DNA of 51,502 nucleotides from Escherichia coli (GCF_003334255.1 NZ_QOWU01000037.1); one strand, 5' to 3'; shown: positions 23,779 through 38,564, counted from the stretch's first letter. Made by a program: numbers and translations. The notes: a model not told the origin generated them from the letters alone.

Positions 23779-24861
23779 ATGAAAAAATTAACAGTGGCAA
23801 TTTCTGCTGTAGCTGCATCAGTACTGATGGCGATGTCTGCTCAGGCAGCTGAAATTTATAATAAAGACAGTAACAAGCTGGATCTGTACGGGAAAGTTAA
23901 TGCTAAGCACTACTTCTCCTCTAATGATGCAGATGATGGTGATACTACTTATGCCCGTCTTGGCTTCAAAGGTGAAACCCAAATCAACGATCAACTGACT
24001 GGTTTCGGTCAGTGGGAATATGAATTCAAAGGCAACCGCGCTGAATCTCAAGGTTCCTCCAAAGATAAAACCCGTCTTGCCTTCGCTGGCCTGAAATTCG
24101 GTGACTACGGCTCCATCGATTACGGCCGTAACTACGGTGTAGCATACGACATCGGTGCGTGGACTGACGTCCTGCCAGAATTCGGTGGTGACACTTGGAC
24201 TCAAACAGATGTGTTCATGACTGGTCGCACCACTGGTGTTGCAACTTATCGTAACAACGACTTCTTTGGTCTGGTTGATGGTCTGAACTTTGCTGCTCAG
24301 TATCAGGGTAAAAATGACCGCACTGACGTAACTGAAGCTAATGGTGATGGTTTCGGTTTCTCCACTACTTATGAGTATGAAGGATTCGGTGTAGGTGCAA
24401 CCTATGCTAAATCTGATCGCACTAATAATCAGGTTATCTACGGTAACAACGGTCTGAATGCTTCTGGTCAAAATGCTGAAGTATGGGCAGCTGGTCTGAA
24501 ATATGATGCGAACAACATCTATCTGGCCACCACCTATTCTGAAACCCAGAACATGACTGTTTTTGGTAATAACCATATTGCCAACAAAGCACAAAACTTC
24601 GAAGCTGTTGCACAATATCAGTTCGACTTCGGCCTGCGTCCATCCGTTGCTTACCTGCATTCTAAAGGAAAAGACTTGGGTGTTTGGGGTGATCAGGACC
24701 TGGTTGAATATGTTGATGTAGGTGCAACCTATTACTTCAACAAAAATATGTCCACTTTTGTTGACTACAAAATCAACCTGATTGATAAGAGCGATTTCAC
24801 GAAAGCATCTGGCGTTGCTACCGATGATATCGTTGCTGTAGGTATGGTTTACCAGTTCTAA
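23779..24861 (+). CDS. Outer-membrane porin, prophage-encoded (NmpC/Lc/OmpC family)
   Basis: 360 aa; signal peptide ...AMSAQA; AEIYNKD...; C-terminal YQF; paralog of phoE in the window. Confidence 0.9.
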
Positions 24862-25655: not shown

Positions 25656-26018
25656 TCATTCATTCCCCATTTCGGTGATGGTCAGTTCCAGCCTCCCACC
25701 TTTGGTAACAGGCATCTTCACAACACGGTAATCAACGACCTGAGCATCATCCAGCCAGAAACCTGCTTTGGTGAGTGCGTCAAAAGCGGCTTTTTGCAGA
25801 TTATCCAGGTCACGGCGACGGCGATCCGGCATGTGGCACTCAATACGGATTTTCACTGGCATAGCCAGGCCGATATCCAGCATGGAGCCTTTGATGATTC
25901 GGGCGACGTTATCGCGGTATGCCTGCCCTTCTGCGCTGACGTGCGTGCGCCCGCGATTATGGCGGTAATAGCGATTATTGCTCGGAGGCCAGGGTAATGT
26001 GATGCTGTAGGTATTCAC
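25656..26018 (-). CDS. rusA: Holliday-junction resolvase RusA
   Basis: 120 aa [27 protein letters not shown]... matches RusA. Confidence 0.9.
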
Positions 26019-26305
26019 GCCTTAATTACCCCCTCTTTCAGCCAGATAACCTGCGTTCTCGCCATACCTTCCAGCGCGCATTCTTTTGCATATCCAGCGT
26101 CAACAAAATGCGTGCGGCGGTCGATTTCGTCGTGGCAGGCAGAACATGCAATGGTGGCAATCAGGTCTGGCGGTTTCGTACCGGTGCCGCACAATCCAGT
26201 CAGCCGGATATGTGCCAGTACAGACGTTTCAGGGTTGCCATTACATACGCCAGGGATTCTTACCTGGCATTCCCGACCACGCGCTGCTTTTCTCAAATCA
26301 GCCAT
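26015..26305 (-). CDS. DUF1364/YbcO-like nin-region protein
   Basis: Cys-rich [14 protein letters not shown]...CSACHDEID; start at ATG 26305. Confidence 0.65.
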
Positions 26306-26468
26306 GATTCCTCCTTGCTGCCAGTCGCAACCATTTTTTATCAACCAGGCTAGCGGTATATCCGAGCAGTGTTGGTATTTCGGATGGTTTCAGCTCAGGC
26401 TTACGCTTACGACGATTTGGTACTCTGTAGATGTGTCCGTTCATGACACGAATAAGCGGTGTAGCCAT
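26298..26468 (-). CDS. NinE-like small basic protein (56 aa)
   Basis: Below ORF-track cutoff; [24 protein letters not shown]...[11 protein letters not shown]; TAATG coupling with upstream gene. Confidence 0.45.
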   Translation of the reverse strand: MATPLIRVMNGHIYRVPNRRKRKPELKPSEIPTLLGYTASLVDKKWLRLAARRNHG

Positions 26469-26923
26469 TACGCCTCCTGCTTGTCGCGCAGCAGCTGGAA
26501 CTCGCAGCTCTGCGGAATAGTCAGGTGGCAGCCAATATTCATCGCCCAGGCTTCAACCTTACACAGGAAGACATACATCTCTCCGCTATCAAGATTGGAG
26601 GTATGACGTAATGACTGAATGGTGGTGATTTCACCGGTTACGACATCAACCAGTTCTTTGGTTTCATAACCGAGATAAGTGTGTTTGAGAGCATCTTTTA
26701 CCCAAGCTGGAGTGGCGAACGTTTTACCCCTGCTGATGAGGTATTCACTGATTTCGCTGTACCACATGTGGCTGAGTGCATTCTGGGAAAGACTGCGTCT
26801 CTCGCGCCACGGTTTAAGCACCATGCGAAAGCATTTGCCGTCCTCCAGATAAGGCTGGATCTGCTGGCCGATAGCGGTGAAGTTACCGCGATGCAATTTG
26901 ATACCATCTTGTGGGAGGTTCAC
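26468..26923 (-). CDS. YbcN-like nin-region protein (DUF1367-like)
   Basis: 151 aa; ggaggtga SD; DLP12 ybcN-like by recall. Confidence 0.65.
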
Positions 26924-27110
26924 GCTTCACCTCCGCAGAGATCAAACGCTGGATGCAAAATATCGCAGGTGCATTTCTGCATCTGTGAATGGAGAAGAGA
27001 GGTTGGATTGTATGTGCGCATAAACGTCCCCGTTTAGCGCAGAAGTCACCGGAGTTGTTCAGGCTCCGATGACATGATTATGGCGGGTTGATTATGGAAA
27101 ATCAATCAAG

Positions 27111-27620
27111 CTATGTTTCATCGGCGAGGTCATCATCTGTGACAATCATGAGGTTAAAGAATGAAATAATGTTTAACCACTGCGAGTAAATATCGCTCGT
27201 CATGCTGGTTAGCTCCTCTCCGTGAAAGAAGGCATCAGGCCCAACCTCATAGTTGAGCTCTTCAAAAAGCTCCATGTTTAATTGGCTAATAAAGAATTGC
27301 TTCAGACCTTTCATTGCATCCTGATTGTTGGTATCTGAGTAATTTATTATGCTCCCCATTGCCATGTTCAAACATCGAACAATATTGGCTGCGTCATGAA
27401 AGCTCCAGTCAGCCCCTTTCTTTCCTTTTGAGTATGAATTCGCTCTCTCAGCGCAAGCTTTTAATGTCTCGTACAAATACTGCTTTCCTTGCAACTGCAA
27501 AGCTTTTTCGGATGTGGCCCTGCTAGCTTCTGAGGATCGCCATGCTAAATAAGTTGCTACCGCAGATGCGATAGCTGCAATCGCAGAAACTGCATCTATA
27601 CCGTTATCCCAACCAGACAT
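27111..27620 (-). CDS. Hypothetical single-pass membrane protein (169 aa), low GC
   Basis: N-terminal hydrophobic helix AVSAIAAIASAVATYLAW, no recognised domain; AT-richer than flanks by eye. Confidence 0.55.
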   Translation of the reverse strand: MSGWDNGIDAVSAIAAIASAVATYLAWRSSEASRATSEKALQLQGKQYLYETLKACAERANSYSKGKKGADWSFHDAANIVRCLNMAMGSIINYSDTNNQDAMKGLKQFFISQLNMELFEELNYEVGPDAFFHGEELTSMTSDIYSQWLNIISFFNLMIVTDDDLADET

Positions 27621-27646
27621 AAAAACCCCCTCGATTATTTGAGGGG
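27621..27646 (-). terminator. Intrinsic terminator-like hairpin immediately upstream of the 169-aa gene start
   Basis: Minus-strand cccctcaaataatcgaggggg followed by ttttt, abutting the ATG. Confidence 0.4.
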
Positions 27647-27669
27647 ATTATACCTTCAAAGTTTCCGCG

Positions 27670-27891
27670 CTACCCATTCATAACTAAAGCTTTTGCTTTC
27701 CAATGAGAAAGCGCGCTATGTTCGCTAGAACCTGTTTCGACTATATGGCGCCCCCAGGAATCTCCCCATGCTCTCCACGTTGACTTGCCGGTTTGGACTA
27801 CTGTGACAACATACTCTTTGCCGTCGATGTTAACTTCATGCTGCACTGGTGATTGTGATTTCATTTTCAAACCTCTGCTTATCGTTGACAT
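27670..27891 (-). CDS. Hypothetical small protein (73 aa)
   Basis: ORF; Trp-rich motif WRAWGDSWGRH; no recognised family. Confidence 0.45.
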   Translation of the reverse strand: MSTISRGLKMKSQSPVQHEVNIDGKEYVVTVVQTGKSTWRAWGDSWGRHIVETGSSEHSALSHWKAKALVMNG

Positions 27892-27915
27892 CGCAATTAT
27901 GCTGTCACGACATAA

Positions 27916-28722
27916 TCACTTCGCCTCCTGCTGCGGTGCTGCTGCGATCATGGCCTTCCATTGGTGGTCTGGGCTCCATAATCTACCGCCATCTTCACAC
28001 TCTTCCTGCGCCTGATGGTACGCCTCACGCATTTCTGGAGTTGGCTCCTTAGGAACCAGCACCCAACCATCCGGAATCACCGGAGAGTTGCTGACGGGCG
28101 ACTCGGAAATTTTTGGCGAAGAATCTAGGGCTGGCGCGGTCTGCATGGTGGTGGGCGACTCGGCTTTTTCGGCACCCTGAAGCATGGCGTCGCGGCATCC
28201 GTCATACGCTTCTTTCATAGCATCACGCACCCATCCGACAGGTTTCTGCTCAGTCAACTCACACCATTTCTCGAATGTGGGCACAGATACCGGAACTGGC
28301 GGTGCTGCATAAAGCGCCTGACAACTCCAGCCAGACCAGTGAGCACCCTCCGCTCTCTCATCATCTTCAGGGCGAACAAGCGTGACTTCGCTCGGGTGTT
28401 TCCTGTGTGACCACAGCCAGGCTACGGTTTCGGCATTGGCTGGCTCTGGCGGGGCGGAGTAAAAATACTCATCCTCAATCCCATCAACGGGCTTTGAGAA
28501 GCCGATAAAATCACCATAATGCCAAGGATAGGGGCCGTATGGCTCAGAGGTCACACGACGCCACCGGTGAATGGCAGGCTCCGCTTCGAGCGATGCCAGC
28601 GCGATACGCAGTGCCGCCAGCGTGTTGCTGTCGCCTTCGTCCAGACCGAACGGGATTTCATCTCTGGCTGCTTCCATGTCGGCAATTTTCTGCTGCAGCC
28701 ATTGTTTGGTAATAGTGCTCAT
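27916..28722 (-). CDS. Hypothetical prophage protein (possibly DUF550/DUF551-type)
   Basis: 268 aa, Pro/Trp-rich; ATGA overlap with downstream ead-like gene. Confidence 0.55.
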   Translation of the reverse strand: MSTITKQWLQQKIADMEAARDEIPFGLDEGDSNTLAALRIALASLEAEPAIHRWRRVTSEPYGPYPWHYGDFIGFSKPVDGIEDEYFYSAPPEPANAETVAWLWSHRKHPSEVTLVRPEDDERAEGAHWSGWSCQALYAAPPVPVSVPTFEKWCELTEQKPVGWVRDAMKEAYDGCRDAMLQGAEKAESPTTMQTAPALDSSPKISESPVSNSPVIPDGWVLVPKEPTPEMREAYHQAQEECEDGGRLWSPDHQWKAMIAAAPQQEAK

Positions 28723-29132
28723 GATGCCTCTCCTTTACCGGATGCGGCGGCGATCAGCTTCTGCGCCTGCTGAATGTCAGGATTGCCTGCAATCATCACT
28801 TCTGGCGCGTCACAGTCACCGCCAAGGTCAAGAATGCGCTCATGTCCGGTACGCAGGCAGGATTTGTATCCTGAAACCGTCTGCTTGAGCGATTCGGTCA
28901 GCACAGCAATCCTCTGGTCTTTGGCTTCCAGCTCATCCAGCAGCGCCAGCACTGTGGCTGGGTTGGCTACGGAGTTCAGCGCGTTCAAGGCAGTGATATC
29001 TGCATCAAGCTGAGTTCCTTCTGCCAGTGAGATATCGAAAATGTCATCAGGCGGCATAACACTAAGGCGCTCATGTGCACCAACTGCTGCCTCAGCGATT
29101 TCACGTAATGCGCGTTTGTCGATGTTGCTCAT
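28719..29132 (-). CDS. ead/Ea22-like protein
   Basis: 137 aa starting MSNIDK; coiled-coil-like. Confidence 0.55.
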   Translation of the reverse strand: MSNIDKRALREIAEAAVGAHERLSVMPPDDIFDISLAEGTQLDADITALNALNSVANPATVLALLDELEAKDQRIAVLTESLKQTVSGYKSCLRTGHERILDLGGDCDAPEVMIAGNPDIQQAQKLIAAASGKGEAS

Positions 29133-29147
29133 TCTTCATCCTCCAAC

Positions 29148-29360
29148 TCAGATACGGCGTCCATTACATCTGAGCCGCGAATGGTTTCGAATGCCACACA
29201 AGACCATTTCAAAGCACAGGCGCTCATGCGGGTGCGGAGATTGCCAATACTTGAAGCCAGGACGATGCGAATAGCCCTGCATCGCATAAAACTCTCCGGC
29301 CAATTCAATGGCGGCATCCACCAGTTCACGGTTTGTCATTGGTTTGTCGATGTTGCTCAT
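29148..29360 (-). CDS. Hypothetical protein with ead-like N-terminus (paralogous start)
   Basis: Starts MSNIDK; 19-nt identical 5' end with the neighbouring gene (29114..29132 vs 29342..29360). Confidence 0.45.
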   Translation of the reverse strand: MSNIDKPMTNRELVDAAIELAGEFYAMQGYSHRPGFKYWQSPHPHERLCFEMVLCGIRNHSRLRCNGRRI

Positions 29361-29557
29361 TGGGCGGCCTCCTGGATTAACTTTTCGAGAATGGCATCAA
29401 GGGCTTTCCGTTTTCCGATATACCCGCCACCAACCCACTCTCCACGAAGCAAGGCGTAATATTTCCCGTCGTCTTCGTGATACGGTCCTCGGATAGACCA
29501 GTCGGTTGTGATGGCGTCGATAGCCTTTTTAGTTTCTGCGAAATCCATCATGCTCAT
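29357..29557 (-). CDS. Hypothetical protein
   Basis: ORF 29357..29614; start placed at MSMMDFAE (29557), directly after ren stop. Confidence 0.45.
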   Translation of the reverse strand: MSMMDFAETKKAIDAITTDWSIRGPYHEDDGKYYALLRGEWVGGGYIGKRKALDAILEKLIQEAAQ

Positions 29558-29847
29558 ACCCCTACCCTCCCCCAAACCATCAACACCCGCTTCATCGCGG
29601 CACTCTGGCGACACTCCTTAAAAATCAGGTTAGTGCTCACCTTTCCTTCCCGTTCTTCCCTGGTAGCGAATCTGTAATACACCGTTCGCCAGACCTTACC
29701 ATCTATGACCAAGATTCCTGCCCGCGCCATTTTAGCCGCAGCCTGATTTATGCTGGTTACTGTTGCGCCTGTTACCGCGGCAACGTCCAGCGCACAGAAG
29801 CTCTTATGCGTCCCCAGGTAATAAATAATTGCCTCTTTACCCGTCAT
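29554..29847 (-). CDS. ren: Ren protein (lambda Ren-like)
   Basis: MTGKEAIIYYLGTHKSFCALDVAAVTGATVTSINQAAAKMARAG... near-identical to lambda Ren. Confidence 0.85.
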   Translation of the reverse strand: MTGKEAIIYYLGTHKSFCALDVAAVTGATVTSINQAAAKMARAGILVIDGKVWRTVYYRFATREEREGKVSTNLIFKECRQSAAMKRVLMVWGRVGV

Positions 29848-30545
29848 ACACTTGCTCCTTTCAGCCCAAACTTAGCTTTGATTTCTGCGATCTTCGCCAG
29901 AGCCTGTGCACGATTTAGAGGTCTACCGCCCATAACAGGAAGTTGTTTTACTGGTTCAGGTATCGTCTCACCACGGTTAATTCGCGCTGTCATACAGGTC
30001 AGTTCATCGGCAGCCTTGCGCCGTAATTCCGCGTCAGTCAGCGCATTGGCCCGCATGTTCTGGTACAAGTTGGTAACCAACCAGTAATGCGCGTTCGATT
30101 TCCACGGATAAGACTCTGCATCCGGATACAGGCCACGCTTCCGGCAATACTCGTAAACCATATCAACCAGCTCGCTGACGTTTGGCAGCCCGGCGTTAAC
30201 AGATGCTTCTTCCCGGCACCAGGCGACAAACTGCCCGGGTGATGGCAGGAATGGTCGATTCTGCCGACGGGCTACGCGCATTCCAGCGTTAACCTGTTCC
30301 ATTGTGGTGATCCCGTTTTCCCGGAAAGCCAGAACCCACTGGCGACGGATTTCGTTCAGTTCATTCTGGTCACGGTTAGCCAGGCTCGCCGGGAAAGTTG
30401 CCAGTAACTGGCTGAACACACCGTTGATGATCTGCGCTACCTGCTGTACCTGTGGCTTTTCGTCGTACTGTTCCGGCATGTTGTTGGCGATCCGGCGCAT
30501 CTGCTCACAGTCAAAGTTAACCATCTGTGCGGCGATGTTTTTCAT
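29844..30545 (-). CDS. P: Replication protein P (DnaB helicase loader)
   Basis: 233 aa, MKNIAAQMVNFDCEQMRRIANNMPEQYDEK... near-identical to lambda P. Confidence 0.95.
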   Translation of the reverse strand: MKNIAAQMVNFDCEQMRRIANNMPEQYDEKPQVQQVAQIINGVFSQLLATFPASLANRDQNELNEIRRQWVLAFRENGITTMEQVNAGMRVARRQNRPFLPSPGQFVAWCREEASVNAGLPNVSELVDMVYEYCRKRGLYPDAESYPWKSNAHYWLVTNLYQNMRANALTDAELRRKAADELTCMTARINRGETIPEPVKQLPVMGGRPLNRAQALAKIAEIKAKFGLKGASV

Positions 30546-31471
30546 AGCTCCACCCCGTAAATCCAGTCAGTGTTCGTCAGGTCGAGTTTTGGTTTGCCGG
30601 CTGTCACGCCAGCCTGTTGCTTGTTTCGGTTGATTTCGAGCTGGGTCCACTTGTCGCGGAGTTTGGCCGGACTTAGCACGTTACCGGACCAGAAGTTGTC
30701 CTGGCATGCCCAGCGGAACAGCACGCACATGTCGCGGTGGTTACGTCCGTCACGTTCACGCATCAGGCGGATATCGTTAGCCCACCCAGCAAAATTCGGT
30801 TTTCTGGCTGATGGCGCGATGGTCTTCACCATGTCAAACATCCACTCTGCGGCGGTCAGGTCTTCTGCTGTCCCCCACTTGCTGCCGCTCTGAATTGCAG
30901 CATCTGGTTTCACCACAGGAAGATCGTTTTCTGGTTGGTCAGAGGATTCGCCAGAATTCTCGGACGAAAAAGGTTTTATATTGTCTTTTGTTAGTTTGTC
31001 TTTTGTGTTTACCTGATTCGGGTAAACGCCTTTACCTGATTTGGGTAAACTTTTTTTACCTGATTCAGGTAAATTTACCTCTTTCAGGTAAACTTTATTT
31101 TTCTTACCTGATTCGGGTAATGTTGACCATTCACTGACCACATTATTAATGCCGGTATTCCGCCCGCTCTGAATAAAAATCCCACGCTTTACCAGAACAC
31201 TTTTTGCAGCAGAACACTTGTGCGGCAATATCCCGGTTAATTCGGAAAGTTGCTCGTTGCTAACCCAATCCAGTTTTTTATTAAAGCCATATGTTTTGCG
31301 CATGACAGCCAGAAAGACCAGAAGCTGGTGCTGTGTTAATCCGGCCAGCATCACAGCTTCCAGCAACTCATTTGCAATGCGCGTATAACCATCATCGAGA
31401 TCTGCCACGCGCGGCTCCTTTTGTGCCGCATCCGGCACTGGAAAATTGAATATCTCAGCAGTGTTTGCCAT
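30542..31471 (-). CDS. O: Replication initiator O
   Basis: C-terminal half near-identical to lambda O; start placed at ATG 31471 (MANTAEIF) with ggagg SD; iterons internal. Confidence 0.85.
   Translation of the reverse strand: MANTAEIFNFPVPDAAQKEPRVADLDDGYTRIANELLEAVMLAGLTQHQLLVFLAVMRKTYGFNKKLDWVSNEQLSELTGILPHKCSAAKSVLVKRGIFIQSGRNTGINNVVSEWSTLPESGKKNKVYLKEVNLPESGKKSLPKSGKGVYPNQVNTKDKLTKDNIKPFSSENSGESSDQPENDLPVVKPDAAIQSGSKWGTAEDLTAAEWMFDMVKTIAPSARKPNFAGWANDIRLMRERDGRNHRDMCVLFRWACQDNFWSGNVLSPAKLRDKWTQLEINRNKQQAGVTAGKPKLDLTNTDWIYGVEL
31008..31120. repeat. ori iterons (5 x ~19 bp, O-binding sites) with adjacent AT-rich region 30960..31007
   Basis: ttacctgattcgggtaaac and four variants in tandem inside O coding sequence. 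Confidence 0.75.
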
Positions 31472-31557
31472 AATTCCTCCCGCAATGAGTGTGTTACGAT
31501 TTGCACCTGAAAGTCGGTTCTGTTCCAGCAGACCGGCTTTCGCCATTTCTGAACCTG

Positions 31558-32097
31558 TCATATCGCCCCCAGCATGGTAGTAACCATCGCCATCAATGGA
31601 CCAGCCAGATCTGGGTCCACACGAAACATCGACACAATACCTTCACTAATTTCCTTCAGTTTCTGGTGGCGTGGTGCGTTGAGAATGACAGCCTGTTTTG
31701 CCTCACTGAGTTCCTTTTCCATTTCAGCCAACCTAGCCATGAAGCTATCCTGCTCAACCAGGTAACCGCGATATTCCAGCGGTAGTACCGCCAGAATTGC
31801 CGGGGTCAGTTCACGCACGTTATTTCGGTATTTTTCAGAATCGAATTTGTTATCGAGGAAGCGGAACAGCTTCTGGCGTGCACGGCTGACATCATCAGGG
31901 AAATCGATGGTGCCGCCGCCCTGCTCCCGATACTCATTCACAATGAGTGTGGCAACGACATCCTGATTATCTACAGCCGACCAGGCGCGGACGGCATCAC
32001 GGATTTTTTCGTGGCCTGGCACCTGTTTTGTTTGAGAACGATTTATCACCGCAGTCGGGCTAAATCCGCTAGTCTGTTGGTATGTAAGTGGTTGCAT
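31558..32097 (-). CDS. YdaT-family protein (CII-position regulator)
   Basis: 179 aa; motifs NEYREQGGG and LTPAILAVLPLEYR resemble Rac YdaT by recall. Confidence 0.6.
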   Translation of the reverse strand: MQPLTYQQTSGFSPTAVINRSQTKQVPGHEKIRDAVRAWSAVDNQDVVATLIVNEYREQGGGTIDFPDDVSRARQKLFRFLDNKFDSEKYRNNVRELTPAILAVLPLEYRGYLVEQDSFMARLAEMEKELSEAKQAVILNAPRHQKLKEISEGIVSMFRVDPDLAGPLMAMVTTMLGAI

Positions 32098-32166
32098 AAT
32101 TGACTCCTTTAGTTTGAATTGACTGTTAAGTTGATTGCTTATTGTTAAAGAGCGTGAAATGGAAAT

Positions 32167-32397
32167 TTAAGCTGCGTTCTTTTCGGTGTGTGGAAACAAC
32201 TTCGGAAGATCCGGGCGAATCTGGTATGCCTTCACTACTCCACCAGTAGCCGTAACAATGCTGCCGACATGTTCAGGGGATACCTTTGCTTTGTTGTGAA
32301 GCCACTTATAGACGGCCTGCTGTGAAACTTCGCAAGCAGCGCCCAGTTTCTTTTGTGAACCAACGATATTGATCGCTGTTTTGATAGCTGGGTTCAT
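32167..32397 (-). CDS. Cro-like HTH regulator (YdaS/Cro family)
   Basis: 76 aa, HTH VSQQAVYKWL; divergent from repressor gene. Confidence 0.65.
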   Translation of the reverse strand: MNPAIKTAINIVGSQKKLGAACEVSQQAVYKWLHNKAKVSPEHVGSIVTATGGVVKAYQIRPDLPKLFPHTEKNAA

Positions 32398-32501
32398 AAC
32401 AACCTCCGTGGTTAATTTGAATCAAGATTAAAACTATGGTTGTTTTTAGTCAACAACCATTTTCGTTTGATGGAATAAAACCTTGGTTGTACATTTGGAC
32501 T
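32398..32501. promoter_or_regulatory. Immunity-region operator/promoter (OR-like) between cro-like and cI-like genes
   Basis: Inverted repeat atggttgtttttagtcaacaaccat plus further aaccttggttg half-sites. Confidence 0.5.
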
Positions 32502-33191
32502 ATGAAAACAACACTCTCAGAAAGACTTAAAGAAGCCAGATTAGCGCGAGGCCTTACACAAAAGGCGCTTGGGGATTTGGTCGGGGTTAGCCAGGCTGCT
32601 ATTCAGAAAATCGAAACAGGGAAAGCTAATCAAACAACTAAAATCGTGGAGATCGCGAACGCTTTGGGTGTGCGCGCAGAATGGTTATCTTCTGGCGTTG
32701 GAAATATGTCAGACAGTACAGTGCAACCAATACAATCAACTGTCAGCCATTCCAAATACTTCAAGATTGACGTTCTTGATATAGAAGTCAGTGCTGGGCC
32801 GGGAGTCATCAACCGTGAGTTTGTAGAAGTTCTACGCTCGGTTGAGTACTCGTTTGACGATGCTCGTCACATGTTCGATGGTAGGAAGGCGGAAAATATC
32901 CGCATCATTAACGTGCGTGGTGACAGCATGTCAGGAACGATCGAACCAGGTGATCTGCTGTTCGTTGATATCACAGTTAAATCTTTCGACGGTGATGGTA
33001 TCTATGCGTTTCTGTACGACGACACAGCCCATGTAAAGCGCCTGCAAATGATGAAGGATAAGCTGCTGGTCATCTCTGATAACAAAAGCTACTCACCGTG
33101 GGACCCGATCGAGAAAGACGAGATGAACCGGGTGTTCATCTTCGGTAAGGTTATTGGGAGCATGCCGCAGACATATAGGAAGCATGGGTAG
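32502..33191 (+). CDS. CI-type repressor (HTH + S24 LexA-like peptidase domain)
   Basis: ORF 32436..33191; start at MKTTLSERLKEARLARGLTQKALGD; C-terminal S24-like with GDSM. Confidence 0.85.
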   Translation: MKTTLSERLKEARLARGLTQKALGDLVGVSQAAIQKIETGKANQTTKIVEIANALGVRAEWLSSGVGNMSDSTVQPIQSTVSHSKYFKIDVLDIEVSAGPGVINREFVEVLRSVEYSFDDARHMFDGRKAENIRIINVRGDSMSGTIEPGDLLFVDITVKSFDGDGIYAFLYDDTAHVKRLQMMKDKLLVISDNKSYSPWDPIEKDEMNRVFIFGKVIGSMPQTYRKHG

Positions 33192-33312
33192 TACCAATTA
33201 AAAATTATCAACTGGGCATTGTGCTCATTCAGTAAAGAACTAATTCCTATCTTTGCTCTAGGTAGTAATATTAAGCCACCGCAATAATATCTTTACCTAA
33301 CGGCGTAAGAAT

Positions 33313-33339
33313 CCCGGTCACCGTGCCGGGTTTTCTTTT
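33313..33339 (+). terminator. Intrinsic terminator downstream of repressor gene
   Basis: cccggtcaccgtgccggg hairpin followed by ttttctttt. Confidence 0.5.
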
Positions 33340-33439
33340 GCCCTCCCCTCATCACACACACCGTTAAAAAAACCACCATAACCTCGCTTCAGTTATCGCT
33401 ATGCGATTCAAGTCACAAAATAAATCCATCCTAAATACA

Positions 33440-33520
33440 ACCAGTTATATCTAAAACAACCAATAAAACAACTTTTGTTGTTGACGATAAAACAACTATA
33501 GTTTTAAATAAGTTCATCGC
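33440..33520 (+). promoter_or_regulatory. Candidate OL/PL-like region
   Basis: Operator-like aacaacttttgttgtt palindrome and repeated aacaac half-sites; ttgacg and possible -10 nearby. Confidence 0.35.
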
Positions 33521-33702
33521 AACAACACAACGATACGGCAACTACCTGATTCACCGTTGCGATGACCGCTTAGATCCGCAGTTTGAATTTCAGCAGGCTT
33601 CGGGGAGTGCGAGGGGTGAAACGGACGCGTGAACGTCGGTGTGACCAGCTGAAATTAACTCAACATTTCATACCTTAGTCGCTTCAACGAGGCGGCTTAG
33701 TT

Positions 33703-33993
33703 ATGACAACCGGCGGCCATCCACCGCCTGAATACGCGCAGAAGTCTCTATATGTTCAGCAGCCCAGCTTACGGGCAGGAGTTTTTATGGTTCATCAACA
33801 TTATGGAACGCAGACCGTTAATCGAGGTGCGGTCATGCCAGGAATGCTGGTCAAACACAAAGATGGTACCTGGACTGCATCAGCTAATTTACGCGGACGG
33901 CTTTATCTGCATCGCGGCATCGAGTGCACTTATACCCGTGATTTGCTCGTGGAAGTTTTTCTCGACGGACGCGGTAACGGCCTGAATCACTAA
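33703..33993 (+). CDS. Hypothetical protein in kil position (possible Kil-like host-division inhibitor)
   Basis: ORF immediately upstream of gam; internal starts (MVHQHYGTQ) possible; no confident homology. Confidence 0.35.
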
Positions 33994-34068
33994 TCCCCTT
34001 TCCTGTTTTCCTAATCAGCCTGGCATTTCGCGGGCGATATTTTCACAGCCATTTTCAGGAGGTCAGCC

Positions 34069-34365
34069 ATGAACGCTTATTACATTCAGGATCGTCTTGA
34101 GGCTCAGAGCTGGGCGCGTCACTACCAGCAGATCGCCCGTGAAGAGAAAGAGGCAGAACTGGCAGACGACATGGAAAAAGGCCTGCCCCAGCACCTGTTT
34201 GAATCGCTATGCATCGATCATTTGCAACGCCACGGGGCCAGCAAAAAAGCCATTATCCGTGCGTTTGATGACGATGTTGAGTTTCAGGAGCGCATGGCAG
34301 AACACATCCAGTACATGGTTGAAACCATTGCTCACCACCAGGTTGATATTGATTCAGAGGTATAA
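34069..34365 (+). CDS. gam: Gam, RecBCD inhibitor
   Basis: 98 aa [21 protein letters not shown]... near-identical to lambda Gam short form. Confidence 0.95.
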
Positions 34366-34370
34366 AACGG

Positions 34371-35156
34371 ATGAGTACAGCACTCGCAACGCTGGCAGGG
34401 AAGCTGGCTGAACGTGTCGGCATGGATTCTGTCGACCCACAGGAACTGATCACCACTCTTCGCCAGACGGCATTTAAAGGTGATGCCAGCGATGCGCAGT
34501 TCATCGCATTGTTGATCGTCGCCAACCAGTACGGCCTTAATCCGTGGACGAAAGAAATTTACGCCTTCCCTGATAAGCAGAACGGCATCGTTCCGGTGGT
34601 GGGCGTTGATGGCTGGTCCCGCATCATCAATGAAAACCAGCAGTTTGATGGCATGGACTTTGAGCAGGACAATGAATCCTGTACATGCCGGATTTACCGC
34701 AAGGACCGTAATCATCCGATCTGCGTTACCGAATGGATGGATGAATGCCGCCGCGAACCATTCAAAACTCGCGAAGGCAGAGAAATCACGGGGCCGTGGC
34801 AGTCGCATCCCAAACGGATGTTACGGCATAAAGCCATGATTCAGTGTGCCCGTCTGGCCTTCGGATTTGCTGGTATCTATGACAAGGATGAAGCCGAGCG
34901 CATTGTCGAAAATACTGCATACACTGCAGAACGTCAGCCAGAACGCGACATCACTCCGGTTAACGATGAAACCATGCAGGAGATTAACACTCTGCTGATC
35001 GCCCTGGATAAAACATGGGATGACGACTTATTGCCGCTCTGTTCCCAGATATTTCGCCGCGACATTCGCGCATCGTCAGAACTGACACAGGCCGAAGCAG
35101 TGAAAGCTCTTGGATTCCTGAAACAGAAAGCCACTGAGCAGAAGGTGGCAGCATGA
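34371..35156 (+). CDS. bet: Bet (Red-beta single-strand annealing protein)
   Basis: 261 aa [26 protein letters not shown]... near-identical to lambda Bet. Confidence 0.95.
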
Positions 35157-35833
35157 CACCGGACATTATCCTGCAGCGTACCGGGATCGACGTGAGAGCT
35201 GTCGAACAGGGGGATGATGCGTGGCACAAATTACGGCTCGGCGTCATCACCGCTTCAGAAGTTCACAATGTGATAGCAAAACCCCGCTCCGGAAAGAAAT
35301 GGCCTGACATGAAAATGTCCTACTTCCACACCCTGCTTGCCGAGGTTTGCACCGGTGTGGCTCCGGAAGTTAACGCTAAGGCGCTGGCCTGGGGAAAACA
35401 GTACGAGAACGACGCCAGAGTCCTGTTTGAGTTTACTTCCGGCGTGAATGTTACTGAATCACCGATCATCTATCGCGACGAAAGTATGCGCACCGCCTGC
35501 TCTCCCGATGGTTTATGCAGTGACGGCAATGGCCTTGAGCTGAAATGCCCGTTTACCTCCCGGGATTTCATGAAGTTCCGGCTCGGTGGTTTCGAGGCCA
35601 TAAAGTCAGCTTACATGGCCCAGGTGCAGTACAGCATGTGGGTGACTCGAAAAGATGCCTGGTACTTTGCCAACTATGACCCGCGCATGAAGCGTGAAGG
35701 CCTGCATTATGTCGTGATTGAGCGGAATGAAAAGTACATGGCGAGTTTTGACGAGATGGTGCCGGAGTTCATCGAAAAAATGGACGAGGCACTGGCTGAA
35801 ATTGGTTTTGTATTTGGGGAGCAATGGCGATGA
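35153..35833 (+). CDS. exo: Exo (Red-alpha 5'-3' exonuclease)
   Basis: 226 aa [30 protein letters not shown]... near-identical to lambda Exo. Confidence 0.95.
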
Positions 35834-36012
35834 CGCATCCTCACGATAATATCCGCGTAGGCACGATCACTTTCGTCTACTCCGTTACGAAGCGAGGCTG
35901 GGTATTTCCCGGCCTTTCTGTTATCCGAAATCCCCTGAAAGCACAGCGGCTGGCTGAGGAGATAAATAATAAACGGGGAGCTGTATGCACAAAGCATCTC
36001 CCGTTGAGTTAA
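35824..36012 (+). CDS. Hypothetical small protein (lambda early-left orf-like)
   Basis: 62-aa ORF overlapping exo stop. Confidence 0.5.
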
Positions 36013-36176
36013 GAACGAGTATCGAGATGGCACATAGCCTCGCTCAAATTGGAGTCAGGTTTGTGCCAATACCAGTAGAAACAGACGAAGAATTTCATAC
36101 GTTAGCCGCATCCCTTTCACAAAAGCTGGAAATGATGGTGGCGAAAGCAGAAGCAGATGAGAGAGACCAGGTATGA
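35985..36176 (+). CDS. Hypothetical small protein (lambda orf63-like)
   Basis: 63-aa ORF. Confidence 0.5.
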   Translation: MHKASPVELRTSIEMAHSLAQIGVRFVPIPVETDEEFHTLAASLSQKLEMMVAKAEADERDQV

Positions 36177-36252
36177 CAACCACTGAATGCATTTTTCTGG
36201 CAGCGGGCTTCATATTCTGTGTGCTTATGCTTGCCGACATGGGGCTTGTTCA

Positions 36253-36468
36253 ATGACACCTCAGCAAGAAAACGCCCTTCGCAGCATTGCCCGTCAGGCT
36301 AATTCTGAAATCAAAAAAGCCAGACAGCAGTTTCCGGATAAAAACGTCGATGACATTTGCCGTAGCGTACTAAAGAAGCACCGCGAAACGGTAACGCTGA
36401 TGGGATTCACACCGACTCATTTAAGCCTGGCGATCGGCATGTTGAACGGCGTCTTTAAGGAACGGTGA
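36253..36468 (+). CDS. Hypothetical small protein
   Basis: ORF 36187..36468; start placed at MTPQQENALRSIARQ (36253). Confidence 0.45.
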   Translation: MTPQQENALRSIARQANSEIKKARQQFPDKNVDDICRSVLKKHRETVTLMGFTPTHLSLAIGMLNGVFKER

Positions 36469-36489
36469 ACATGAAAAGCAAAATCATCA

Positions 36490-36512
36490 GGGAGCTACAG
36501 GCTCCTTTTTTA
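36490..36512 (+). terminator. Terminator-like hairpin
   Basis: ggagctacaggctcc followed by ttttttatt. Confidence 0.35.
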
Positions 36513-36566
36513 TTGTTCGCATTCACCCTCAAGCGTATTAACCAACAATTCAGGGATTAATGGAAG

Positions 36567-36785
36567 ATGGCAGACATCATTGATTCAGCATCAGAAATTG
36601 AAGAATTACAGCGCAACACAGCAATAAAAATGCACCGCCTGAACCACCAGGCTATATCTGCCACTCATTGTTGTGAGTGTGGCGATCCGATAGATGAACT
36701 AAGACGTCTGGCCGTTCAGGGTTGTCGGACTTGTGCAAGTTGCCAGGAGGAGATCGAACTTAAGAACAAACAATGGGGATTGTGA
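36567..36785 (+). CDS. TraR/DksA-family C4 zinc-finger protein
   Basis: CCECGDPIDELRR...CRTCASCQEE. Confidence 0.75.
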   Translation: MADIIDSASEIEELQRNTAIKMHRLNHQAISATHCCECGDPIDELRRLAVQGCRTCASCQEEIELKNKQWGL

Positions 36786-36833
36786 TGGCCTCAAAGCAGC
36801 AAATTTCAACATCAGTCCAACTGAGGTGTAAAA

Positions 36834-37112
36834 ATGTTCAGAATCATTTTTCCTAACACCTGGTACGTCGACCACCACGGCACTCCCTGCAAAATCCTGC
36901 GTTCTACCCACAACAAAGTTCACTACATCCGAAAAGGCAGAACATGTATCGCCAGCATGTTCCGCTTTAATCATGACTTTGAACCTGTGAATAAAGCTGA
37001 TGCAGATCGGATAGCAGAAGAGATCGAAACGGCAGAACACATTAAGAAGTTACGTGACATGCGTTCAAAAAGCAGAGGTAACCATGGAATCATACAGCCT
37101 CACACTCGATGA
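36834..37112 (+). CDS. Hypothetical protein
   Basis: 92-aa ORF upstream of xis; overlaps xis start. Confidence 0.45.
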   Translation: MFRIIFPNTWYVDHHGTPCKILRSTHNKVHYIRKGRTCIASMFRFNHDFEPVNKADADRIAEEIETAEHIKKLRDMRSKSRGNHGIIQPHTR

Positions 37113-37434
37113 GGCCTGTCAGTTTCTCAAGATATCCAGACCTACCGCTACCAACTGGATACGAACAGGCCGCCTACAGGCAACACGCAAAGACCCCACT
37201 AAACCAAAATCTCCTTACCTCACAACGCGACAAGCCTGCATTGCGGCGCTTCAGTCTCCGCTGCATACTATCAAGGTGAGCGCGGGTGATGGCATAACAG
37301 AGGAAAGAAAATGTCACTCTTCCGCAGAGGTGAAATATGGTACGCCAGTTTCACATTGCCGAACGGTAAAAGATTTAAACAGTCTCTTGGAACAAAGGAC
37401 AAAAGGCAGGCGACAGAACTCCATGACAAGCTAA
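37084..37434 (+). CDS. xis: Excisionase-like HTH protein (Xis)
   Basis: [31 protein letters not shown]; agagg SD; 3' end overlaps int, true stop uncertain. Confidence 0.55.
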
Positions 37435-38474
37435 AGGCTGAAGCATGGCGGGTCAGCAAACTTGGTGAAATACCTGATATAACGTTCGAGGAAGCGTGTG
37501 TCAGGTGGCTTGAAGAGAAAGCACATAAAAAATCACTGGACGATGACAAAAGCCGGATCGGATTCTGGCTTCAACATTTCGCAGGAATGCAACTAAGAGA
37601 CATTACTGAATCAAAAATTTATTCAGCAATGCAGAAAATGACGAACCGGCGTCATGAGGAAAACTGGAAACTCAGGGCAGAAGCATGCAGAAAAAAAGGG
37701 AAACCTGTTCCAGAATACACGCCAAAACCAGCGTCCGTTGCAACGAAGGCTACGCATCTTTCATTTATAAAGGCCCTACTAAGAGCCGCAGAGCGTGAAT
37801 GGAAAATGCTGGATAAGGCACCAATTATTAAAGTGCCTCAACCAAAGAATAAACGGATCCGCTGGCTGGAGCCCCATGAAGCACAAAGGCTGATTGATGA
37901 ATGTCCGGAGCCATTAAAGTCTGTTGTTGAATTTGCACTGGCAACAGGCTTAAGACGCTCGAACATCATCAACCTTGAATGGCAACAAATAGATATGCAG
38001 CGCCGGGTGGCATGGATAAACCCGGAAGAGAGTAAATCAAACCGCGCAATCGGCGTTGCGCTGAATGATACTGCATGTCGCGTTTTGAAAAAACAAATCG
38101 GGAATCATCACCGTTGGGTATTTGTGTACAAGGAAAGCTGTACCAAACCAGACGGAACGAAAGCGCCAACAGTAAGGAAGATGCGGTATGACGCAAACAC
38201 AGCCTGGAAAGCAGCGCTGAGGCGGGCTGGTATTGATGATTTCAGATTTCACGACTTGAGACACACCTGGGCAAGTTGGCTGGTTCAAGCCGGAGTCCCG
38301 TTGTCAGTGTTACAGGAAATGGGAGGCTGGGAGTCTATCGAAATGGTTCGTCGATATGCTCACCTTGCACCTAATCACCTTACCGAACACGCACGGCAAA
38401 TAGACTCGATCCTGAACCCATCGGTCCCAAATTCGTCCCAGTCAAAAAATAAGGAAGGTACTAATGATGTGTAA
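37311..38474 (+). CDS. int: Tyrosine integrase (IntD/DLP12-type)
   Basis: 387 aa [22 protein letters not shown]...[10 protein letters not shown]...VRRYAHL; ends 14 bp from tRNA 3' end. Confidence 0.9.
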
Positions 38475-38488
38475 CTTATTGATTTAAA

Positions 38489-38564
38489 TGGTGCCGATAA
38501 TAGGAGTCGAACCTACGACCTTCGCATTACGAATGCGCTGCTCTACCAACTGAGCTATATCGGC
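38489..38564 (-). tRNA. thrW: tRNA-Thr (anticodon CGU), thrW-like; prophage attachment site
   Basis: Reverse complement GCCGATATAGCTCAGTTGGTAGAGCAGCGCATTCGTAATGCGAAGGTCGTAGGTTCGACTCCTATTATCGGCACCA folds as cloverleaf. Confidence 0.9.

Follow-up and report, generated by a model that had tools for sequence, protein, structure and literature searches.

The mosaic genomes of lambdoid phages have been proposed to arise by homologous exchange at short conserved boundary sequences, for which PMC3029335 and PMC2327257 cite Clark et al. 2001, and the "linker" idea is attributed in the same two sources to Susskind & Botstein 1978. In T4-type phages, the promoter-early stem-loop (PeSL) cassettes are described by Arbiol et al. 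2010 (PMC2839356) as short elements that flank non-essential genes in hyperplastic regions. Recombination at PeSLs inserts, deletes and replaces single genes, and genes located between two copies are looped out as mini-circles (PMC2839356).

We analysed a 51,502-nt stretch of Escherichia coli DNA (GCF_003334255.1 NZ_QOWU01000037.1; hereafter the window), in which two adjacent prophage genes begin with the same 19 nucleotides. From sequence comparison we consider it probable (roughly 0.8) that the two gene starts are copies of a conserved boundary or linker junction between ea/ead-type accessory cassettes of P22-like and lambdoid enterobacterial phages, exchanged by recombination. Features of this kind have been described before, and P22 contains the same sequence.

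The locus and its two junction copies

The minus strand of the window holds the early-right operon of a lambdoid prophage, which is 100% identical to E. coli G1/2 (NZ_CP060083.1). Along this strand, the replication gene O (31561-30542) is followed by P (30545-29844), ren (29847-29554), a 66-aa gene of unassigned function (29357-29557), a small gene encoding 76 aa if intact (29129-29360), an ead/Ea22-like gene of 137 aa (28719-29132), a 268-aa gene (28722-27916) and, beyond it, ybcN-ninE-ybcO-rusA-quuD. The gam-bet-exo (Red) genes of the same prophage are on the plus strand (34069-35833, as annotated by PGAP in E. coli G1/2, where the region is identical).

Several features of the prophage were observed in passing. 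Its ea/ead-type cassettes are in the nin region downstream of ren, in the PR operon (window 27916-29557), a placement also seen in mEp237 and E. coli FDAARGOS_1250. The exo-xis region (35830-37433), where P22 and lambda have ead/ea22, is occupied by DUF1317, DUF1382, TraR/DksA and DUF4222 genes. An ATG-initiated ORF of 73 aa (27670-27891, minus strand), with no PGAP call, fills the gap between the 268-aa gene and a 169-aa gene. Both iss (21695-21988) and an ompC-like porin gene (23779-24861) lie on the strand opposite the late genes and are moron-like. The integration site adjoins tRNA-Thr and proA (integrase 37355-38473; tRNA 38488-38563); in P22, attB lies within the thrW tRNA-Thr gene (PMC8022706).

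The 19-mer, ATGAGCAACATCGACAAAC, occurs exactly at 29360-29342 and 29132-29114 on the minus strand, with starts 228 nt apart, and nowhere else in the 51.5-kb window when up to 3 mismatches are allowed. Shuffled sequences contained a mean of 0.04 matches, and two or more were found in none of 100 shuffles, so the pair is not a chance occurrence. Both copies are the ATG starts of ORFs, and the sequences of the two genes part after position +19. The first-pass annotation had reported an identical 19-nt start followed by divergence, and was accurate in both respects. It was also right that one gene is ead/Ea22-like and the other unrecognised: the product of the gene at 29132 matches Pfam PF13935 (Ead_Ea22; E = 4.5e-23, residues 2-100 against model positions 1-113 of 139) and is labelled "ead/Ea22-like family protein" by PGAP, while the repaired 76-aa product of the gene at 29360 had no Pfam match even at E ≤ 10 and matched only phrog_4132, a family with no assigned function.

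The repeat extends beyond the 19-mer to 31 nt, of which 26 are identical, with GGAGG at -12 to -8 in both copies. Copy 1 (29342-29372, minus strand) has the full canonical form of this unit of about 31 nt, GGAGGCCGCCCA followed by ATGAGCAACATCGACAAAC, the 19-mer being its gene-proximal half. The unit contains a Shine-Dalgarno (SD) site and the closing codons of the gene upstream (E-A-A-Q-stop), whose stop overlaps the next start as ATGA, and then the MSNIDK codons; here, the upstream half consists of the final four codons and stop of the 66-aa gene. Copy 2 (29114-29144, minus strand) has the same 19-mer and the same GGAGG, and its upstream half is GGAGGATGAAGA, which is the family-conserved 3' end of the small gene itself (..LEDEE-stop). 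Homologues of the small gene with this 3' end precede other genes elsewhere.

Conservation, spread and reassortment of the junction

Loci were gathered by exact match to the 19-mer or to the 15-mer upstream, so conservation within the search pattern is there by construction, and the independent evidence comes only from the other half of the junction and from the flanks. When 114 distinct copies were aligned on the 19-mer, positions -12 to -1 (GGAGGCCGCCCA, outside the search pattern) were conserved at 0.67-0.95 per position. Upstream of -14 the profile was random; downstream, conservation, which derives from the ead N-terminus (QALREAAEKA), had faded by about +47. The overlapping TGA closes an ORF of 40 codons or more in 118 of 125 copies; the encoded proteins are unrelated, and xEAAQ is the C-terminus of most of them. 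Anchoring on the upstream 15-mer alone, the exact 19-mer came next in 48 of 80 matches. About 11 further matches were followed by variants (MSNINK, MSSIDK, MSNIDI, MTALNK twice, MSNVTK, the MSTTLNEW/MSATLKEW/MSTTLKEW types and possibly MSTIDI), one differed solely by a synonymous change (GAT for GAC), and about 20 of the 80 looked unrelated. The anatomy and conservation of the junction can both be read directly from these aligned copies. The "conserved 5' linker" of the first-pass annotation is indeed a conserved linker with many different genes behind it; it is not only a 5' element, being a junction of about 31 nt that also takes in the ribosome-binding site and the final codons of the gene upstream.

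The synonymous sites of MSNIDK are nearly invariant, whereas the neighbouring conserved Q/RALRE codons are written in 17 nucleotide versions in 49 copies. Judged by this contrast, the conservation probably stems from constraint on, or homogenisation of, the DNA or RNA and not from selection for the peptide.

The exact 19-mer was present in at least 120 IMG/VR viral contigs. A 33-nt form of the junction was found in 97 phage records, including P22, ST64T, L, epsilon34, ES18, Gifsy-1/2, ST64B, Sf101, epsilon15 and mEp phages, and the junction was found in 118 of 5,426 complete E. coli genomes. The shared sequence is not peculiar to this genome; the first-pass annotation had named the opposite outcome, uniqueness, as part of what would count against its reading.

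P22 has two exact copies of the 19-mer, 356 nt apart, one opening an eaF-type ORF (MSNIDKLNDHELV...) and the other opening ead (MSNIDKQALREEF...). As in the window, the identical 19-mer stands at two consecutive ORF starts, each after ..GCCCA, and P22 ead and the window ead gene belong to the same Pfam family. The P22 pair differs in that its first gene is eaF (119 aa, phrog_6018) and not the small 76-aa gene, and in its location in the early-left ea region (PL operon), whereas the window cassettes are in the nin region of the PR operon. Common sequence between P22 eaF and the small gene is limited to about 45 nt at their 5' ends, which suggests, from this alignment, a further joint near +45. 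In the aligned copies (window 29316-29369, minus strand; L124 2647-2698 for P22), similarity runs for about 26 nt past the 19-mer before the genes become unrelated, at 85.7% over 56 nt with a small indel (PMTNRELVD versus LNDHELVD).

A second type of junction separates the ead gene from the 268-aa gene (28704-28739, minus strand), with the sequence GGTAAAGGAGAGGCATC followed by ATGAGCACTATTACCAAAC (..GKGEAS-stop/MSTITK). Its start matches the 19-mer at 14 of 19 positions, and 27 copies in distinct contexts were found among the fetched loci, allowing up to 3 mismatches. About half of the 124 proteins encoded behind the 19-mer end in xKGE or KGEAS, and at one locus (L040) the body of the 268-aa gene stands behind MSNIDK instead of MSTITK. 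Within the ead gene there is also a conserved island, CTGCTGGATGAGCTGGAA (28926-28943, minus strand), encoding LLDELE. This motif occurs in 67 of the 124 proteins, at protein positions 24-99 and in 50 cases with the identical 18 nt, and 21 nt at the island are identical to P22 ead. From this pattern, the island is probably a third exchange point, inside coding sequence.

We compared the flanks of 126 distinct junction copies, clustering them at 80% identity over 150 nt. There were 61 upstream and 69 downstream clusters in 116 combinations; 25 upstream clusters had more than one downstream partner and 22 downstream clusters had more than one upstream partner. Pairs of copies were similar upstream only in 87 cases, downstream only in 82 and on both sides in 9, and identity was below 60% on both flanks in 4,637 of 7,875 pairs. 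Behind the junction stand many mosaic ead-like genes, as well as eaF (phrog_6018), DUF551-like genes (phrog_60), genes for a PAPS reductase (phrog_424) and an HNH endonuclease (phrog_99), and several whose products have no family match. Relatives of the 3' end of the 66-aa gene precede different MSNIDK genes at two other loci (L054 and L120). In about 48 E. coli records that share the 5' region of the window ead gene at 93-94% identity, similarity begins at the linker edge, behind various upstream genes.

Breakpoints fall at the edges of the junction. Among pairs similar upstream (n = 120), similarity was lost at +19 to +22 in 78 and by +45 in 106; among pairs similar downstream (n = 147), it was lost between -1 and -13 in 99. 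For pairs at least 85% identical on at least one side, similarity continued across the junction in 5%, compared with 13%, 26%, 36% and 72% at control boundaries 150-300 nt away, which are out of register with any breakpoint and so flatter the junction's count of abrupt transitions. With similarity continuing in 13-26% at control boundaries, the DNA around the junction is highly mosaic too, which makes the junction the sharpest of several exchange points rather than the sole one. Reassortment and breakpoint positions are direct readings of the alignments, and the argument from them to recombination is comparative throughout. The prediction that different genes would be found behind the same 5' sequence in different phages was borne out by the 69 downstream clusters behind 126 copies, and module shuffling by recombination at the linker, as first proposed, is supported by this comparison, with mosaic joints at the linker edges.

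The small gene, the proposed exchange and its alternatives

Compared with its counterparts in E. coli S51, in viral contig L071 and in Salmonella phage SW-37, the ORF at 29360 carries one extra T, at window 29203. PGAP labels it "frameshifted", and both reading frames match phrog_4132; the small gene is a pseudogene in this genome, with a +1 frameshift. Among the full-length matches listed, 8 span 311 nt like the window and 14 span 310 nt, so the extra T is not a read error of one assembly. The small gene of S51, the only 310-nt copy aligned, is intact. The gene is thus a pseudogene in the window and intact in other E. coli, judged by S51 and by the 14 matches that are one base shorter. Accessory genes of this kind were seen to decay independently across hosts (window 29203, minus strand; L001 2462-2770; L197 1768-2181): the SW-37 copy of the small gene has a TTG start and a different 1-nt insertion, and the S51 ead gene is annotated with an internal stop.

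The small gene has 70 homologues, nearly all of them free-standing proteins of 66-87 aa. These rule out that the 70-aa ORF arose by internal deletion from a longer protein of the ead type, an idea prompted by the match of the ORF to positions 106-178 in the phrog_4132 profile, which has 179 positions; the length of that profile probably reflects a 179-aa Acinetobacter phage member. An AlphaFold2 model of the small protein (pLDDT 91.8) has three helices and found no informative match among PDB and viral folds.

Across the aligned family, Met8 is the first residue of the conserved core (MTNRELVDAAIELAG...), which is preceded by more than 35 kinds of leader of 0-14 residues, such as MEKET, MNQEP, MTEQT, MAAKR and MSKQP. 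MSNIDKP or MSNIDIP is a minority state, being the leader of 5 of 63 cluster representatives. The gene body is joined on directly after the 19-mer, with only a 3-nt ambiguity (AAC) relative to the MSKQP form. On this alignment, the MSNIDK leader of the small gene is a graft. The 3' end of the gene (..DLEDEE-stop) is conserved and provides the next gene with GGAGG and with an overlap, either ATGA or GTGA. The small gene has different neighbours, upstream as well as downstream, in three further genomic contexts. The gene is present in all 25 full-length E. coli matches, and no precise empty site, with the 66-aa gene joined directly to this ead gene, was found among the 5,426 E. coli genomes. Three candidate empty-site junctions (H105-H107) were rejected, as their upstream genes differ from the 66-aa gene.

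In the exchange that we propose, the junction would bring a ribosome-binding site, the overlapping stop and start and the first six codons, so that any gene placed behind it could be translated within the operon. The same 31 nt or so lie between many pairs of unrelated genes, in co-infecting phages as well as in resident prophages. Homologous recombination of the general kind inside the junction would swap, insert or delete whole genes cleanly, and would do so preferentially there. The most plausible agents would be phage single-strand-annealing systems, either Red, which this prophage encodes, or Erf. Red promotes recombination between diverged sequences (PMC2327257). A homology of 31 nt is short for RecA-dependent exchange and we infer a role for Red or Erf, with gam-bet-exo as candidate machinery for recombining such short homologies. 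The small three-helix-protein gene, normally found with other leaders, would have acquired the MSNIDK leader; placed between the full linker and the 19-mer of ead, it would form a cassette with direct repeats of 19-31 nt on either side, later inactivated by the 1-nt insertion. The junction may be kept for serving both expression and exchange.

The junction might instead be conserved only as a signal for translation initiation or coupling, or for a needed MSNIDK peptide, with recombination incidental and the joints reflecting selection for intact genes. The elements of such a signal are present (SD, 7-nt spacer, ATGA overlap and A-rich first codons), GGAGG at -12 to -8 with the ATGA overlap recurs in almost all copies, and the 3' end of the small gene also provides GGAGG at the same distance. 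Although 70-nt windows at linker starts fold slightly less stably than those at control starts (MFE -11.7 vs -14.5 kcal/mol), the predicted accessibility from SD to AUG does not differ (0.51 vs 0.49, p = 0.12), the structure of the two window copies is ordinary (z = 0.9 and 0.4), and no stable or unusual fold was found at the junction relative to controls or shuffles. Searches for other signals found no promoter-like site in 27800-30000, where terminator-like sites were at chance level; Rfam gave no match at the junction and a single weak, chance-level match in 26000-34000 (rliD, E = 0.6, 31006-31119). Also against a signal or peptide alone are the freely varying QALRE codons beside the almost invariant synonymous sites of MSNIDK, and the lower confidence of the leader-bearing first 10-residue block of the AlphaFold2 model (mean pLDDT 70). 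The unrelated upstream proteins, all of them forced into EAAQ ends, speak against it too, and it would leave unexplained why similarity stops at both junction edges. The translational role and the linker explanation are compatible rather than exclusive; as a complete account, we think the former unlikely.

The direct repeats 228 nt apart that bracket the small gene could also be the recognition site or target duplication of a dedicated site-specific system, integron-like or a homing endonuclease, with the gene as its mobile cassette, and HNH endonuclease genes do lie behind or beside the same junction in some phages. Such a system is very unlikely here: no recombinase or endonuclease adjoins the cassette in the window, there are no inverted repeats and no attC-like structure, the upstream half of the junction is missing from the right-hand repeat, and consecutive ordinary gene boundaries, such as P22 eaF/ead, carry the junction. 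Local duplication is the least credible origin. The two genes are adjacent, on the same strand and identical at their starts, and the first-pass annotation had called them paralogous. This is wrong, as BLASTP of the two products found MSNIDK and a weak RE..AA match over 18 residues and nothing more, leaving no similarity past codon 6 other than that weak match. One gene belongs to PF13935, whereas the product of the other is without a Pfam match and is predicted to fold differently, homologues of the small gene mostly have other leaders and other neighbours, and the same 19-mer precedes dozens of unrelated genes elsewhere. A bolder extension of the linker explanation, which we regard as improbable, is that the junction is an actively maintained "plug" defining an integron-like pool of accessory cassettes in Salmonella, E. 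coli, Enterobacter and related phages. If it were true, the synonymous sites would be frozen through recognition of the junction by a specific factor (phage protein or RNA), and recognition would serve coordinated translational control of all cassettes or targeted exchange, including looped-out circles. The plug would work in both PL (ea) and PR (nin) operons, with at least two companions, the ..KGEAS-stop/MSTITK junction and the LLDELE island.

Comparison with known exchange systems

The linker explanation places the junction among several described systems. Like integron gene cassettes (attC/attI), the locus is an array of promoterless single-gene cassettes split by a recurring short element. 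Unlike them, it has no integrase and no structured attC site, and exchange presumably proceeds via general homologous recombination.

PeSL cassettes would be the closest mechanistic analogue that has experimental support. In both cases the element also secures expression of the gene behind it, and a gene between two copies could loop out; mini-circles have been demonstrated for PeSL. A PeSL is an intergenic unit of about 100 bp with a sigma-70 promoter and a terminator stem-loop (PMC2839356). The junction has 31 nt, no promoter, no terminator and no stable structure, and in place of a spacer that could hold a promoter and stem-loop, its genes overlap at ATGA. It contains coding sequence of both neighbours, and its action would be at the level of translation. 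It is thus not a PeSL.

For annotation, identical starts in such clusters should not be taken as paralogy, and the junction can be used to place starts and stops in ea/ead clusters. The 2001 paper by Clark, Inwood, Cloutier and Dhillon is reportedly the HK620 genome paper. Among the papers searched, none contained "MSNIDK".

As a discovery the locus adds little, since boundary sequences were proposed in 1978 and reported in 2001, according to the citing papers, and the window copy brackets a decayed gene. It would be a clear and quantifiable case of temperate phages reshuffling accessory genes one at a time while their operons stay whole, in which one 31-nt unit appears to supply both translation signals and exchange homology, between dozens of unrelated gene pairs, including those of P22. 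The sequence relevant to comparison with the lambdoid boundary sequences is GGAGGCCGCCCAATGAGCAACATCGACAAAC. Like them, this junction is short, lies at a gene boundary and is shared by phages that otherwise differ from each other, the DNA on its two sides being unrelated, and mosaic joints occur at it with independent reassortment of the flanks.
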